From an uncultured bacterium (GTDB taxonomy: Bacteria; Patescibacteriota; Minisyncoccia; Phycocordibacterales; Phycocordibacteraceae), in assembly GCA_947085985.1 (NCBI GenBank), contig CAMTYL010000003.1, positions 362,108 to 426,107 on the forward strand: a stretch of 64,000 bases of DNA. The letters run 5' to 3'. Each line of letters opens with the position of its first letter. Position 1 is the stretch's first letter. Positions 20,336 through 52,357 of the stretch are shown one piece after another. The notes under the pieces are model-generated. The model ran no database searches, was not told where the DNA came from, and was given only the letters and a program-made list of their open reading frames with translations. A program made the position numbers and the translations under genes.

Positions 20336-21337
20336 TCAATGCGCCTTGCGAAAGTTGTTTTGTATATGCTCGCTCAACATGTGGGCATTCCCGTGCTTCA
20401 AGAGCCCCAGGCATGACTGAATACTCTCTTCCTTTCCCTCTATTTCCATGATACGCCGCAGCATTCGTCGCTTGCTGGTGCTCCGTAGAGTGCGATGGTC
20501 AGGGAAATGCACCCAACCGAGAAAGTCTACCCCTGCCGAAAGTGTTCCGATTGATACTTTCCTTGGATGAAGCTCTAATTTCAGACGGGCATGTAGAAAT
20601 TCCTCAATACGAGGAAGGAGTGATTCGAGCAACATGCGGTCTTCCGAGAAGAAAGCAAAGTCATCCGCATACCGTATGTAGTGCTTAGCTTTTAGTTTAT
20701 GCTTTGCAAATTGGTCGAACTCGTTCATGTACACATTCACTAGAAGTTGTGAGGTAAGGTTGCCGAGTGGTAGACCCTTTCCCTTTTCACTACTTGAAAA
20801 GCTTTCGATAACTCTCCCAATGAGCCAGAGCGTATCTTCGTCTGACAAATAGGAACGGAGTATATCCATAAGCACATCTTGGTCTATTGAAGCAAAGAAC
20901 TTTCGAATATCACACTTCAGCACCCAACAGGTACGGGTACCGTTCTTTGATACCTTATAGCCAAATGCTTTGAATCTCTTCATTGCTCTGTGCGTTCCCT
21001 TTTTCTTTCGACATGAAAACGAGTCTGCAATAAAGGTACGGTCAAAGAGCGGATACAGCTTACGGTAAATAGCATGATGCAATAGGCGGTCTCGTACCAG
21101 TGCTTTATGTATATCTCGCGGTTTTGGGTCTGATATCTTAAAGGCCGTATATCCTCCGTGGGTATAGGTTTTCTCTTTTAAATCTTCTTGCAACTTGAAA
21201 ACATGGTGCATGAGAAAGCGTGAGAACTCACGAACATCCATTTTTCTTCGCTTCCCTTTTAGGAATTCGTGCCACGCTTCGAGCAGATTCTCGATTGAGA
21301 TGATATCTTCATATTTATGAACGAAGCGATTTCGCAT
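20336..21337 (-). CDS. Diversity-generating retroelement reverse transcriptase (DGR RT), copy 1
   Basis: 333 aa; YADD catalytic motif; DGR-specific LPLGNLTSQLLVNVYMNEFD (I/LGxxxSQ) motif; strong similarity to the Bordetella phage bRT family layout. Confidence 0.85.
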   Translation of the reverse strand: MRNRFVHKYEDIISIENLLEAWHEFLKGKRRKMDVREFSRFLMHHVFKLQEDLKEKTYTHGGYTAFKISDPKPRDIHKALVRDRLLHHAIYRKLYPLFDRTFIADSFSCRKKKGTHRAMKRFKAFGYKVSKNGTRTCWVLKCDIRKFFASIDQDVLMDILRSYLSDEDTLWLIGRVIESFSSSEKGKGLPLGNLTSQLLVNVYMNEFDQFAKHKLKAKHYIRYADDFAFFSEDRMLLESLLPRIEEFLHARLKLELHPRKVSIGTLSAGVDFLGWVHFPDHRTLRSTSKRRMLRRIMEIEGKEESIQSCLGLLKHGNAHMLSEHIQNNFRKAH

Positions 21338-21371
21338 ACGGCATTTAACGCCCCCCCCCCCACGATCTTTC

Positions 21372-21734
21372 GTGGCCGTCGTAGAGCGTGCAAAAGACCT
21401 CTATCGCGTGTGGCTGCCTGTGCGACGCAGTATGGCGCGGGACGAACGCTTCGGTATTGGCGCAAGAATAGACACCTTACTTCTCGATATTCTTGAGACT
21501 CTGCGAAAGGCAAGTTTTGTAGATACGACAAGCAAACCCGCTCTACTAGGTACAGCGATAGGTATAGCGGACTCATTGCGGTTCTTCTTGCAGATAGCAT
21601 GGGAAAACAAACTGATTGCTAATAAACAATACGAGGAACTCGCGGGTGCTGTCGAGGAGATAGGACGCATGACTGGAGGTTGGAGAAAGGGTGTTCTTAG
21701 TAAAACCCCGCTCAAGCAGAGCGGGGAAAGATAG
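21372..21734 (+). CDS. avd: Accessory variability determinant (Avd) / four-helix-bundle protein, encoded antisense to the DGR RT/TR strand
   Basis: 120 aa, pattern ...GIGARIDTLLLDILETL...LRFFLQIAWENKLIANKQYEELAGAVEEIGRMTGGW typical of Avd/23S-IVS four-helix-bundle family. Confidence 0.7.
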   Translation: MAVVERAKDLYRVWLPVRRSMARDERFGIGARIDTLLLDILETLRKASFVDTTSKPALLGTAIGIADSLRFFLQIAWENKLIANKQYEELAGAVEEIGRMTGGWRKGVLSKTPLKQSGER

Positions 21735-21739
21735 GAGTA

Positions 21740-21843
21740 GCGAGAAACGACGTGGTTGCCGTCGTTCCACTCGTTCGGGTTCGTAACCGGATTGGCTTCG
21801 ACATTCCAGCCGTCGTCGTTCCAGTTGGCGTTCACCGCCCAGA
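21740..21843 (-). repeat. DGR template repeat TR1 (A-rich on minus strand)
   Basis: 104-bp near-identical to 22165-22268; all ~20 mismatches are T (plus) = A (minus) in this copy. Confidence 0.8.
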
Positions 21844-22161
21844 CGATATGTGCATCACGCCATCCGTACCACTGCCCTTTGAATACTCTTAAGGCTGAAT
21901 CTCATGTGGGACCTCGGAAGTCCACGAGCGCAATGCACCTGTTTCTATTCTTTTTTAGAACATCTGCGGACACGCTTGTGCTTGGAATACCTCACGCAAT
22001 TCTCTTCCGCATATGTCCAAGGAGTTGCGTGCGAGCCGTAGCCAACACACCATAACTTCCTTGTTGTCATTGTATCAAAGCAAAGGACCCTCATCCCCAG
22101 TGCCGACAAAGCGACAAAGGTTCAGAGGGTCCAAGGGTCCGAAGACCAAAGTGACTGAGAA

Positions 22162-22779
22162 TCAGCGAGAAACGACGCGGCGGCCGTCGCGCCACTCGAG
22201 CGGGTACGCAACCGGAGAGGCCTCGACACGCCAGCCGTCGACGCCCCAGTCGGCGCCCACCGCCCAGAGGACTCCCTTCGCGTCAGCGACGTAGAAGATG
22301 AACCACTTGGACTTGTCGGCGGTCTTCAGGAACTCGAAGGTGTGCGCCAGGGCGACACGGGCCTTCTCGACCTTGTTCAGATCCTTGTCGCCGAGGGCGG
22401 CGAGGATCGGACCGTCGACAGACGACTTCCGCAGCTTGCGCTGCTTGGCCGTCATGGGCTTCACGTCTTCTTCGACGACATCGAGGAAATTCCCCTTGAA
22501 GTTGTCGCCGAGGTACGAGATCGGGAGTTCCCCGTTCCGATTGACCATGAACTTGTCGCGGGCGACGAAACGCTCGACGGCGGAGAGCTTCACGGGCTCG
22601 CCGACCTGTTCGAGCAAATCCGCGAGGACTTTCGGGGCGGCGGCGTGCTTGGCCTGACCCGCGTTGCCGGGTTCGGTAACAACGAGTTCGCCGCTCAACA
22701 CGCGAGCGATGGCGGATTCGCCACCAATTTTGTTGATGAGCGCCTCGACTTGGCCGAGGTTCACATTGCCGTACTTCAT
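22162..22779 (-). CDS. DGR target (variable) protein 1, 205 aa, C-terminal VR-encoded ligand-binding region
   Basis: C-terminus VLWAVGADWGVDGWRVEASPVAYPLEWRDGRRVVSR matches TR-encoded ...VWAVNANWNDDGWNVEANPVTNPNEWNDGNHVVSR. Confidence 0.75.
   Translation of the reverse strand: MKYGNVNLGQVEALINKIGGESAIARVLSGELVVTEPGNAGQAKHAAAPKVLADLLEQVGEPVKLSAVERFVARDKFMVNRNGELPISYLGDNFKGNFLDVVEEDVKPMTAKQRKLRKSSVDGPILAALGDKDLNKVEKARVALAHTFEFLKTADKSKWFIFYVADAKGVLWAVGADWGVDGWRVEASPVAYPLEWRDGRRVVSR
22165..22268 (-). repeat. DGR variable repeat VR1 at the 3' end of target gene 22162-22779
   Basis: Pairs with TR1; substitutions only at TR adenines; ends at the stop codon. Confidence 0.8.
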
Positions 22780-49389: not shown

Positions 49390-50385
49390 TTAAATAGTTA
49401 CACTATCCTGTAACGTTTGGACTCTGGTGGCGAGCTTTCTCGTATTTCCATGAGACATTAGGCCGAAATATGAACTCAGTCGTTCCTTGGACGTATTGTT
49501 CCTGAGCTTCGTAAACATCCTCCTTTTACTTACAGTCCTCAATACCCTGTGATCTGAGAAATGCACCCAGCCAAGAAAGTCCACGCCCGACGCAAAGGAC
49601 TTTATATATACCTTGTCCGGGTGCATGGTTAGTCCAAGATTGGTTTCTAGGAATTCATTCAACTGAGGGATGAGTGATTCAAGGTATCCTCGGTCTTCAC
49701 TGAGGAATACGAAATCATCAGCGTAGCGTATGTAGTACTTTGCCCGGAGACGGTGTTTAACGAACTGGTCGAATTCATTCATATACACGTTCGCGAAGAG
49801 TTGTGATGTGAGATTGCCAAGAGGTAGTCCCGTTTTAGGTGTAACCTCGAAGCTGGAGATTATCTCTCGTAAAAGATTCAGAATGTCTGGATCAGGAATA
49901 TGGGATTCAAGAATGGTCATCAGTTTGTTGTGCTTCATGGAGGCAAAGAACTTCCTGATATCGCACTTCAATACCCAGACCGTTCGAGTGTTATTGCGTC
50001 CTACCTTCTGAGAGAAAGCTTTGAATCTATCGAGAGCTTTATGTATGCCCTTTCCGTCACGACAGGAGTACGAGTCATGGATAAAGGTAGTATCAAAGAA
50101 TGGATATAGTTGGCGATATAGAGCGTGGTGCAGGAGCCGATCACGCACATTAGCCTTATGAATAATGCGAGGCTTGGGGTCAGAGATATTGAAACTTATA
50201 TATCCGCCATTGCGATACGACCTATTCTTTAAATCAGCGTGTAGGTCGAGGACGTGTCCCATGAGATTCGTTTCAAACTCCCGCACATCCTTTCGGGCGC
50301 GTTTTCCGTTCAAAAACTCTCGCCATGCGTCGAGTAGATTCTCCGTCGAGATGATATCTTGATATCTATGTCCGTACGCTCTCAT
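49390..50385 (-). CDS. DGR reverse transcriptase, copy 2 (paralog, ~60% aa identity to copy 1)
   Basis: YADD, LPLGNLTSQLFANVYMNEFD motifs. Confidence 0.85.
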   Translation of the reverse strand: MRAYGHRYQDIISTENLLDAWREFLNGKRARKDVREFETNLMGHVLDLHADLKNRSYRNGGYISFNISDPKPRIIHKANVRDRLLHHALYRQLYPFFDTTFIHDSYSCRDGKGIHKALDRFKAFSQKVGRNNTRTVWVLKCDIRKFFASMKHNKLMTILESHIPDPDILNLLREIISSFEVTPKTGLPLGNLTSQLFANVYMNEFDQFVKHRLRAKYYIRYADDFVFLSEDRGYLESLIPQLNEFLETNLGLTMHPDKVYIKSFASGVDFLGWVHFSDHRVLRTVSKRRMFTKLRNNTSKERLSSYFGLMSHGNTRKLATRVQTLQDSVTI

Positions 50386-50427
50386 ACCTCCAAGGCTACC
50401 CCCCCCCCGACACTTCCAGTGCTAGTG

Positions 50428-50760
50428 CAGGTCAAAAGTGTGTATATCCTTTGGAACTCTTACGCCGCAAAAATTCCTAAGACCGCTAAGTACTCTCTTG
50501 GTCTCAAGATAGATAATCTGTTTATAGATACGATTGAAGCAATTTCAATTGCCGCATTCCTACAGCGTGCCGAGAAACTTCCCTATCTCAAGAGAGCAAT
50601 TGCGCGAGTCGATACCCTGAAAGTCTTTCTACAGCTTGTATGGGAAATGAAGCTACTAGATACTAAGCAGTATGCGGAGATTTCAGAGAAGCTCTCGGAA
50701 GTAGGAAAAATGCTTGGAGGCTGGTACGGACAGGTAGTAAAGCAAAACTCCCCTGCATAG
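50428..50760 (+). CDS. avd: Avd-like four-helix-bundle protein, copy 2 (antisense to RT/TR strand); start uncertain
   Basis: ...KYSLGLKIDNLFIDTIEAI...LKVFLQLVWEMKLLDTKQYAEISEKLSEVGKMLGGW. Confidence 0.65.
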   Translation, partial: QVKSVYILWNSYAAKIPKTAKYSLGLKIDNLFIDTIEAISIAAFLQRAEKLPYLKRAIARVDTLKVFLQLVWEMKLLDTKQYAEISEKLSEVGKMLGGWYGQVVKQNSPA

Positions 50761-50781
50761 GCAGGAGAGAAATGAAGTAAG

Positions 50782-50907: not shown

Positions 50908-51257
50908 GAATCGGTTTGAGCGCCACACCATCTGTACCACCACCCCTTGAAAGTTCTTGGGGTTGAATCTTATGTGTGATCGTAATCACCAGTGTGACGC
51001 ACCAAGTATCTTCATTTTTGAAGTTTCTGCATACACCACGCTAGTTCAAATCGTAGTCGGAACTATTCTGGGTTGTATGGATACTGGGTTCGGTAGCAGA
51101 CGAGCCTATGGCTCCCGCGTATTCACCTACTGCCGTTTTTAAATATACCGTATGTAAATGTAGAAAGTCCCCGGGCGCATCACTGCGGCCGGGGACCCTT
51201 GATCGGAAGGACAAAGTATCAGAGGGACAAAGAGCCGAAGCTCTAGTCCCAAGGATC

Positions 51258-51956
51258 TTAGTCCTGAGTGACCTTGCGAAGACGGAACACGATGCGATTG
51301 CCGAGGCTCCACTGATTGCCGGGATGCGTCCAGTCCGCAATGAGCCACCGCTCGCCGCCCGAGCCCCGCCCGACGCGGAAGACGCTCGGGCGGCCGCCGG
51401 AAGCGGTAATCCGTTCCATCGCGATCCAGAGGACTTCGCCGTTGGGCTGATCCTTGTACTGGTCGCGGATGTGCGGACCCGCTTCCGCCGGAAGCAGTTC
51501 GACGACGTGGCCGTCGAGCCGTTCGGCGTTCTGCGCGCTCCACTCGGCAAGCCGGGTGGGATCGAGCAGTTCGGTCGTGGTCGGCATGCGCTCATAGCCG
51601 AAGTCGGCAGGGGTGAGGATGATCGTATCGATTTCCTCCTCCTTGTCGAGCGTCGTGAAGGCGTGGTTGTTGACCAGGCTCTTGGCGTAGTCGCTGACCG
51701 TGAAGCCAGCTTCGACGCGCTTGATGAGCGCCTTCTTGGCGACGCCGCCGATCAGGAACGTCCGCCACTTGGCGAACGCAGGCGTGACCACCAACAGGGG
51801 CGGTTCGGGCGTCTTCCCTTCGATGACGGCCTGGAGGGCCTTCATCACGTCGTCGAAGTTGGCATAGGAGCCGGACTTCACACGCCGGAACAGGTCGTTT
51901 TGGCGGACGGCGAGCTGACCCAGCTGACCGTCGGTGACAAGAGTCTTGGTATTCAT
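51258..51956 (-). CDS. DGR target (variable) protein 2 (233 aa from ATG 51956), paralog of target 1
   Basis: Shared FTVSDYAKSL../ISYLGDNFKGNF.. core and VR-encoded C-terminus ...ERWLIADWTHPGNQWSLGNRIVF. Confidence 0.7.
   Translation of the reverse strand: MNTKTLVTDGQLGQLAVRQNDLFRRVKSGSYANFDDVMKALQAVIEGKTPEPPLLVVTPAFAKWRTFLIGGVAKKALIKRVEAGFTVSDYAKSLVNNHAFTTLDKEEEIDTIILTPADFGYERMPTTTELLDPTRLAEWSAQNAERLDGHVVELLPAEAGPHIRDQYKDQPNGEVLWIAMERITASGGRPSVFRVGRGSGGERWLIADWTHPGNQWSLGNRIVFRLRKVTQD
51274..51398 (-). repeat. DGR variable repeat VR2 at the 3' end of target gene 51258-51956
   Basis: Pairs with TR2; A-specific substitution pattern. Confidence 0.8.
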
Positions 51957-52357
51957 GATATACCTCGTCGTGACAGTACTTTGCCGTTCAAGCTCACCAG
52001 TGTTCGGGTTCGCCACAGCGGAGAATGGCCTAGATAAGCCGCTCTTCGCTGTGGCGAATTCGCAAGGTTTTCAAGGAACAAGTCCGTACCACAGTATCAC
52101 AATATACGGGTAAAGTCAAGTCATTTTGACCGTTCCCGCTCAGAAGAATATCCTTATCAAATATGAGCCAAATAGTTATCGGGGTCGTCATTGCCGTTAT
52201 ATCGGCCATCATCATTTCCCTATTCCGAATTGGTGGAAATCAGAACGTAACGGTACATCACGTACAAAGCACTCATCGTGCTGGGACTCTTTGGAAACTA
52301 ATGATTGTTCTAGGCTGGGGCAGTGAAGTTCCCTCGCGAAGGAGCGGAGCAGCTTAT

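Follow-up and report, generated by a model that had tools for sequence, protein, structure and literature searches.

Among the described diversity-generating retroelements (DGRs), that of the Bordetella phage BPP-1 has the Architecture B1, in which mtd with its variable repeat (VR) is followed by avd, the template repeat (TR), a spacer and brt. The DGR RNA of this phage comprises 20 nt upstream of TR, TR itself and a 140-nt downstream spacer (PMC6182149). This spacer, located 3' of TR, contains the Avd-binding stem-loop, the priming adenosine A56, a stop duplex, the thumb ring and a stem-loop that binds the reverse transcriptase (RT) (PMC6182149; bioRxiv 10.1101/2023.10.23.563531). Another catalogued layout, Architecture B3, is written as "TR-(avd)-RT", with the parentheses denoting the reverse strand; it made up 90% of the DGR set from the Candidate Phyla Radiation (CPR) and was almost never encountered elsewhere, and a cassette with parts on both strands has to be transcribed as two units or more (Wu et al., 2018, Nucleic Acids Res 46:11, PMC5758913). 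The present analysis concerns two DGR cassettes in a 64,000-nt stretch of contig CAMTYL010000003.1 from an uncultured member of the Patescibacteriota (hereafter the window, from whose first letter all coordinates are counted). The best explanation overall, and a probable one, is that both are B3 DGRs whose template RNA is made as a separate transcription unit.

In both cassettes, the order is target gene with VR, TR, avd on the opposite strand and RT, and the ORF (open reading frame) maps, the repeat search and the TR/VR alignments agree with the initial annotation that avd stands antisense between TR and RT. All 21 mismatches between TR1 and VR1 (within a 106-nt core) and all 23 between TR2 and VR2 fall on TR adenines of the minus strand, which places the TR sense strand on minus, together with RT and the target, and means that both elements were active in the past. 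After the last adenine mismatch, TR and VR share identical blocks (CGTCGTTTCTCGCT in cassette 1 and CAATCGCATCGTGTTCCGTCTTCGCAA in cassette 2), which are candidates for the initiation of mutagenic homing sequences (IMH/IMH*), the invariant 3' block where mutagenesis ends. The LGNLTSQ motif of RT1 and RT2 fits the pattern [LIV]GxxxSQ, presumably specific to the RTs of DGRs. With an RT, an Avd and a TR/VR pair that differs only at adenines, each cassette is, judging from its sequence, a complete DGR with past activity. A search of the window for further VR copies of TR1 or TR2 found none. The TR-to-RT interval of cassette 1 has a length of 400 nt (21338-21737) and is taken up by the 363-nt avd1 ORF, with gaps of 3 nt from TR to the avd stop codon and 34 nt between the start codons of avd and RT.

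An RT-alignment scan of species-representative genomes gave 481 relatives, the best 80 of which were retrieved as loci (L001-L080). All 80 came from CPR/Patescibacteria-type genomes, though a few bins carry other labels. An Avd homologue lies head-to-head with RT, directly upstream on the opposite strand, in 73 of the 73 loci with enough upstream sequence. Of 67 testable loci, both window cassettes included, 59 have a TR whose end is located -1 to 30 nt from the avd stop, TR being accepted here at 80% or more adenine mismatches and with VR further upstream on the RT strand. Because the relatives have the same layout (73/73 and 59/67), both cassettes are typical members of the already catalogued CPR-type class B3, with the order TR, avd, RT, the opposite orientation of avd and no other accessory gene. 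Indeed, gene order, orientation, host lineage and the small RT of ~330 aa are all the same as in the B3 DGRs of CPR, and no layout-level difference from them was found (PMC5758913). The arrangement had been flagged as non-canonical, which stands as far as the Bordetella phage prototype is concerned but not with regard to the catalogue; by itself, the layout is not new and adds only further B3 members. The argument that it is functional rather than an assembly error is borne out by its conservation in all 73 relatives, which greatly exceeds what chance would give.

The predicted template RNA

The spacer between VR and TR (300-360 nt) is non-coding and strongly conserved; in the prototype, the same interval holds avd. 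Along the RT strand from 5' to 3', its elements are a UUCG hairpin with direct repeats, the terminator hairpin and T-run of the target gene, an extended -10 element and a leader of ~220 nt which runs into TR. The family alignment gives the -10 consensus TTTxTGxTAxAAT. A TGnTAnnnT element ends 219-241 nt upstream of TR in ~35 of 60 loci and, among the 46 sequences covered, an extended -10 was present in 29 and a plain -10 in 17 more.

Fifty leaders were aligned with MAFFT on the basis of sequence alone, and RNAalifold resolved this alignment into 36 pairs in five helices; compensatory double changes occur in 33 of the pairs. The first two helices, P1 and P2, form hairpins that each contain a conserved G-U pair and mostly have a tetraloop of the UACG type. 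The long-range helix P3 has 12 bp, closes a three-way junction with P4 and P5 and ends ~12 nt before TR. In an independent count, 95.5% of the cells were paired as opposed to 68.5% in shuffles (0 of 500 shuffles as high) and to 40-50% in slid controls; double-change cells numbered 543 versus 166 in shuffles. Of the 36 consensus pairs, 34 are formed in cassette 1 and 30 in cassette 2. A search of the whole window at the Rfam gathering thresholds gave no matches. The possibility that the leader is a small-protein gene was rejected: there are long stop-free stretches, yet they do not keep to one frame, and any given anchored frame is free of stops in at most 9 of the 50 sequences. Leaders of five relatives (L013, L016, L032, L045 and L064) have insertions of 25-50 nt resembling expansion segments; the insertion points are fixed and lie downstream of the P1-P2 linker, ahead of the A-run and within the P4 loop.

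On the other side of TR, at a distance of 9-12 nt from its 3' end, there is a hairpin of 8-9 bp with the family motif CTCYCC...loop...GGRGAG TTTTGTTT. In cassette 1, the hairpin region covers the avd1 stop codon together with the 11 codons before it; the hairpin of cassette 2 straddles the avd2 stop codon. Of 72 loci, 52 have a terminator-like element, defined as a hairpin plus T-run, on the RT strand and none has one on the avd strand; among ~900 control windows, there was 1. A GC-rich hairpin with an immediate U-tract is the hallmark of intrinsic termination, and the element on the RT strand is therefore a predicted terminator. A bidirectional terminator which would also serve avd was ruled out by the T-run count on the avd strand (0/72). 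A covariance model built from ten copies of the hairpin recovered it at the same place in 57 loci as well as in cassette 2 (57.9 bits), and otherwise gave two weak matches with E ~0.9. In the covariation count, 98.4% of the hairpin cells were paired, 7 of 9 pairs had changed on both sides, and 0 of 500 shuffles were as high.

Relative to the avd stop, the hairpin lies anywhere between -31 and +14 nt, and the tail of Avd is variable in length and disordered in the structural model. As both the hairpin position and the Avd tail vary, the constraint lies on the nucleic acid and not on the protein. The C-terminal tail of Avd (KQNSP...GEK in many relatives and KTPLKQSGER in Avd1) has as its coding sequence the reverse complement of the U-tract plus hairpin, and its Lys codon under the U-tract is almost exclusively AAA (entropy ratio 0.12). 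The sequence of this tail thus seems to be dictated by the RNA element on the other strand. In Handa et al., a putative Avd-binding stem-loop just 3' of TR, commonly of 9 bp with a tetraloop, is described for 207 of 278 Avd-containing DGRs, CPR members included (bioRxiv 10.1101/2023.10.23.563531). The hairpin fits this description in position and size, with the U-tract in addition, and is a putative Avd-binding element.

The linker between TR and the hairpin (CUUCAUUU) is complementary to an A-rich segment of the leader with the consensus AAAAAUGAAGAUAC, which sits ~150 nt upstream of TR, a position unlike that of the phage element. The cassette 1 pair is different (AAAGA-A-UAG with CUA-UCUUU), and the stop codon of avd1 falls, on the opposite strand, within its CUA-UCUUU part. 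Cognate leader:linker duplexes were more stable than non-cognate ones (-7.68 versus -6.03 kcal/mol; Mann-Whitney p=8e-6, permutation p=0.0005), and a control leader segment had no significant cognate effect in the same comparison. In a fixed-register count, 70% of the cells were paired versus 64% in shuffles, with 34 versus 14 double-change cells (0 of 500 shuffles as high). The minimum free energy fold of the 363-nt cassette 1 RNA (22062->21700) has -130 kcal/mol (z -2.76) and gives the leader:linker helix, P1, P3 and the terminal hairpin. Overall, support for the leader:linker helix is moderate. Given its own extended -10, the covarying leader and the hairpin with U-tract after TR, the template RNA is apparently a separate unit.

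The antisense avd interval and competing readings

If the interval between TR and RT belonged to a functional RNA, the antisense avd sequence would have to hold its elements. A codon alignment of 68 distinct avd genes, in which codon entropy per column was compared with the gene-wide codon usage, gave a synonymous entropy ratio of ~1.0 along the whole gene, with a drop to 0.12-0.6 in the last ~12 codons only. When duplex energies were calculated between two 130-nt segments of antisense avd and either the sequence upstream of TR or the 3' end of TR, cognate combinations were not more stable than non-cognate ones. The first duplex test, made with the 50 nt upstream of TR against linker and hairpin, was also negative, and the pairing partner was later located ~150 nt upstream. 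As for the Bordetella-type elements (primer adenosine, thumb ring, RT-binding stem-loop), no constraint or cognate pairing was detected within ~140 nt 3' of TR beyond the hairpin and U-tract. Antisense avd as the holder of spacer elements was rejected on the two negative results for synonymous codon entropy and duplex energies; on this sequence evidence, it is most likely not part of a functional RNA.

An unlikely alternative to a separate template RNA is that the hairpin only binds Avd and does not terminate, whereby an RNA with leader and TR runs on through antisense avd as a functionless tail and serves as the mRNA of RT, with a separate transcript for avd. The position and size of the hairpin, which are those of the described Avd-binding stem-loop, the Shine-Dalgarno (SD)-like motif before the RT ATG, and the weak -35 match in the avd-RT spacer speak for it, and the unconstrained antisense avd fits a passive tail. 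On the other hand, the U-tract is conserved and tied to the hairpin, with the Lys codon covered by it kept almost always as AAA, and the T-run is retained even where the hairpin lies outside the avd ORF (e.g., in L006). Moreover, 20 of 61 loci have a TAnnnT hexamer flush with the poly-G tract of the avd-RT spacer, where ~2 would be expected, and this hints at a separate RT promoter; read-through would also collide with the convergent transcription of avd.

Quite improbable is the reading closest to the initial annotation, namely, a TR-RT co-transcript in which ~400 nt of antisense avd act as the functional spacer for self-priming and RT binding, and the sense/antisense overlap couples the expression of avd with that of TR and RT. 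The essential 140-nt spacer of the Bordetella phage does lie between TR and the RT gene, the same interval that is filled here by antisense avd, and Handa et al. assumed a downstream spacer for the CPR DGRs too. There is also no strong recognisable RT promoter in the 31-34 bp spacer, and the frequent SD-like GAGG suggests a 5' untranslated region (UTR). Nevertheless, the synonymous sites of avd are free apart from the codons of the hairpin and U-tract, and the TR flanks have no cognate-specific pairing to antisense avd, so the spacer with self-priming structures was not borne out. The coupled co-transcript fares no better, given the strand-specific terminator-like motif directly after TR (52/72 loci) and the strongly covarying RNA domain upstream of TR with a promoter of its own.

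The identity of the plus-strand ORFs as Avd, on which the layout depends, was confirmed by profiles and by structure. Both ORFs scored 46.5 bits with Pfam bAvd (PF22296; gathering cut-off 40), and their only NCBIfam match, over the full length, was DivGenRetAVD with 61 and 69 bits, below the equivalog cut-off of 80. PF22296 was present in all 120 listed homologues, some of them named "four helix bundle protein" and from Patescibacteria, with Paceibacterota, Kaiserbacteria and Nomurabacteria among the names. The AlphaFold model of Avd (34 sequences) has a confidence (pLDDT) of 93.4, four helices and a disordered C-terminal end of nine residues. A Foldseek search of the PDB with this model placed the Bordetella phage Avd first (chains of 4DWL, with template modelling (TM) scores of 0.81-0.89 and a root-mean-square deviation of 1.7 A) and next the Avd chains in 8UB7, a DGR ribonucleoprotein. 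Against the PDB, a 56-sequence profile of Avd had no significant match, with 4DWL on top at E=0.62. By sequence and model, the plus-strand ORFs are thus genuine Avd proteins. That they arose by chance or through an assembly inversion, with the true accessory gene elsewhere, has practically no chance of being correct and was rejected: the sole point in favour is the NCBIfam score under the strict equivalog cut-off, against the above-threshold Pfam matches of both ORFs, those of the 120 listed homologues, the 4DWL-like fold, and an identical layout in 73/73 relatives and in five independent assemblies of the cassette 1 locus.

Several points weigh against a separate template RNA with a structured leader. 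Promoter, site of termination and ends of the RNA are all predictions, and some read-through may occur; likewise, a hairpin with U-tract can be leaky or purely protein-binding. The hairpin covariance model misses the divergent copy of cassette 1. Many RT genes have the SD-like GAGG just before the ATG, which fits a longer 5' UTR or read-through equally. The synonymous test picks up conserved sequence, and an element of antisense avd conserved in structure only could escape it. The leader:linker helix pairs in only 70% of the cells in a fixed register, i.e., its covariation is moderate, and RNAalifold predicted no pairs on the concatenated leader segment and linker, a null result explained by the A-U richness of the helix and by the shifts of its register between subfamilies. 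The structured leader 5' of TR, the overlap of hairpin and avd stop and the avd-RT poly-G tract found no mention in the accessible literature, the coverage of which is incomplete, so that the novelty of the leader cannot be guaranteed.

The avd-RT spacer, its repeat tract and further features

The start codons of avd and RT are usually 29-41 nt apart in the relatives, with a mode of 31 nt. A run of 7-14 G on the RT strand occupies this spacer in 61 of 74 loci. It is replaced by (GT)n in L004, L006 and L034, and by (CT)n in L070; in L064, a CT-rich run stands beside the called avd start. In 20 of the 61 loci, the TAnnnT hexamer mentioned above abuts the tract, and the RT ATG typically follows 13 nt past the tract. 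The tract of cassette 1 is 11 long in the window and 12 in four independent Logan assemblies which are otherwise identical over the aligned stretch; in other groups of otherwise identical assemblies, the lengths were 11/11/10, 11/11 and a constant C8 in four contigs. The tract looks like a slippage-prone sequence in a promoter spacer or 5' UTR, with homopolymer sequencing error as another possible source of the length differences, and it may act as a phase-variation switch for RT and/or avd. Since GT or CT repeats stand at the same position in some loci, an SD mimic or a G-specific RNA element is less likely.

Phase-variable promoters are known from the TA repeats between the divergent hifA and hifB genes of Haemophilus influenzae, and from the poly-G/poly-C promoter tracts of Neisseria and of the Bordetella fim genes. 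The avd-RT tract resembles them as a homopolymer between divergent genes, with dinucleotide repeats in some relatives, length differences of one unit and an abutting -10-like hexamer. It is a candidate for such a promoter tract, and its length differences could be errors of sequencing or assembly. A paper linking DGRs to such a tract was not found in the accessible literature.

A separate promoter for avd, divergent from RT, is a reasonable assumption. With an avd-RT spacer of just ~31-34 bp, most of it homopolymer, at least one promoter would have to lie inside the neighbouring coding sequence. The avd start is TTG in 53 of 74 loci, within TTGCCAGTG encoding MPV; it has no SD sequence, and the poly-C tract stands 7-8 nt upstream instead. 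For avd2, the previously assigned start at 50428 is not a start codon, and comparison with the relatives moves it to the GTG at 50419. The longest avd2 ORF has a TTG start at 50359 and would overlap RT2. The features of both cassettes are collected in Table 1.

Table 1. Coordinates of the observed and predicted features of the two DGR cassettes, counted from the first letter of the window.
Feature	Position	Strand	Details
Target gene 1	22162..22779	minus	205 aa; VR1 at 3' end
VR1	22268->22163	minus	ends at the stop codon of the target ORF 22162-22779
UUCG hairpin 1	22147->22136	minus	GGUC-UUCG-GACC, ~15 nt downstream of VR1, then CTTTGTCG direct repeats
Predicted extended -10 for template RNA, cassette 1	22077->22069	minus	TGATACAAT, preceded by a T-rich stretch; also found by promoter scan
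Leader 1	21844..22062	minus	P1 22028-22049; P2 21978-21997; P3 21927-21938/21850-21861; P4 21909-21923; P5 21874-21895; A-rich segment 21945-21953, predicted to pair with linker 21727-21734
TR1	21843->21738	minus (sense)	106-nt core
Linker 1, hairpin 1 and UUUU	21700..21737	minus	linker 21727-21737; 8-bp hairpin CCCCGCUC-UGCUU-GAGCGGGG at 21706-21726
avd1	21372..21734	plus	120 aa; 363-nt ORF; GTG start
Repeat tract 1	21351..21361		poly-G (minus)/poly-C (plus), 11 long; in the 34-bp avd1-RT1 spacer
RT1	20336..21337	minus	333 aa; LGNLTSQ and YADD motifs; RVT_1 E=1.4e-20
Target gene 2	51258..52016	minus	252 aa; contains VR2
VR2	51409->51274	minus	stops 16 nt short of the end of the target ORF 51258-52016
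UUCG hairpin 2	51243->51232	minus	GAGC-UUCG-GCUC, downstream of VR2
Target-gene terminator hairpin, cassette 2	51167-51196		just upstream of the -10 element
Predicted -10 element, cassette 2	51147->51142	minus	TATATT
Leader 2 with -10 element	50918..51147	minus	P1 51096-51118; P2 51044-51063; P3 50991-51002/50918-50929; P4 50977-50987; P5 50942-50963
TR2	50917->50782	minus	
Linker 2, hairpin 2 and UUUU	50744..50781	minus	linker CUUCAUUU, complement of leader AAAUGAAG; 9-bp hairpin CUCUCCUGC-CUAU-GCAGGGGAG at 50748-50769
avd2	50419..50760	plus	113 aa from GTG 50419, start set by comparison with relatives
Repeat tract 2	50399..50408		poly-G/C, 10 long; in the 33-bp avd2-RT2 spacer
RT2	49390..50385	minus	331 aa; LGNLTSQ and YADD motifs; RVT_1 E=9e-25

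The 205-aa target 1 protein had no match in Pfam or NCBIfam. The regions downstream of VR (22085-22162 and 51167-51273) contain direct repeats of the CTTTGTCN type, and the family consensus is a run of CTTNG-like units followed by the target-gene terminator. A hairpin downstream of VR is also known in the Bordetella phage (summarised in PMC5758913) and, by analogy, the UUCG hairpin with its repeats may serve in retrohoming as the element by which the target side is recognised. An Adlerbacteria genome has identical cassettes on two of its contigs (L041 and L042), with the nearest VR-like partner just 104 nt upstream of TR; this is too short for the usual leader, and the true VR may be elsewhere or the element may be rearranged.

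The window holds two complete, diverged DGR cassettes 29 kb apart in one genome, with RTs 60% and Avds 34% identical. Each has a single target and a matching leader:linker pair of its own, an indication that the RNAs are cassette-specific.

Proposed mechanism and its bearing on CPR retroelements

Each cassette would comprise three transcription units: the target gene, a discrete template RNA, and the divergent avd and RT genes. The template RNA would be a minus-strand unit with promoter, leader, TR, linker and hairpin with U-tract, ending mostly at the hairpin, whose place in the Bordetella phage RNA is taken by the Avd-binding stem-loop. The helix between the A-rich leader segment and the linker would close TR off as a loop. 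A cis-primer for copying TR, starting at the TR 3' end, would have to lie at the spot taken by the leader nucleotide that directly follows this helix on its 3' side. Docking and priming, which in the Bordetella phage reside downstream of TR in the 140-nt spacer, would thus lie upstream. Transcription of avd would converge on the template RNA, with ~35 bp in common with its 3' end, and RT would be expressed separately from the short avd-RT spacer, where the poly-G tract may modulate expression.

The cassettes share with BPP-1 the adenine-specific TR-to-VR differences, the same RT class and a four-helix Avd. At the RNA level, a stem-loop directly 3' of TR and, as a prediction for the cassettes, a duplex joining both sides of TR are common to both. 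In contrast, avd is reversed and downstream of TR, while in BPP-1 it is upstream. The TR-RT interval is unconstrained at the RNA level beyond ~40 nt, whereas the phage needs 140 nt, and a structured domain of ~220 nt precedes TR, and the strand predicted to pair beside the TR 3' end comes from upstream.

The resulting topology, with a 5' primer and a 3' template, would be retron-like and the reverse of the phage connectivity. In the retron non-coding RNA (msr-msd), a structured 5' part carries the priming nucleotide, the template lies 3' of it, and a helix joins the 5' part to a segment 3' of the template. The predicted arrangement has this same topology, and the analogy is one of topology only: there is no sequence relationship, and the product of the DGR would be an adenine-mutagenised complementary DNA for retrohoming into VR. 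Taken together, a leader that docks RT-Avd and provides a cis-primer in a retron-like manner, an RNA that ends at the avd-overlapping hairpin, and a repeat tract that switches hypermutation from cell to cell form a picture that is put forward tentatively, being somewhat more apt to fail as a whole than to hold.

CPR bacteria carry many DGRs, yet the mechanism of reverse transcription in DGRs is known entirely from the Bordetella phage element, whose essential RNA is downstream of TR. If the RNA domain of CPR DGRs lies upstream and the RNA ends at the hairpin shared with avd, the boundaries of a minimal CPR DGR RNA would be predictable and testable in vitro. Scans limited to the 40 nt upstream and 100 nt downstream of TR, the span used by Handa et al. 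(bioRxiv 10.1101/2023.10.23.563531), would then miss relevant elements. The upstream move of the RNA domain would have freed the TR-RT interval for the reversed avd. Finally, the slippage-prone avd-RT tract, if it acts as proposed, would be a simple switch turning on targeted hypermutation in part of the population.

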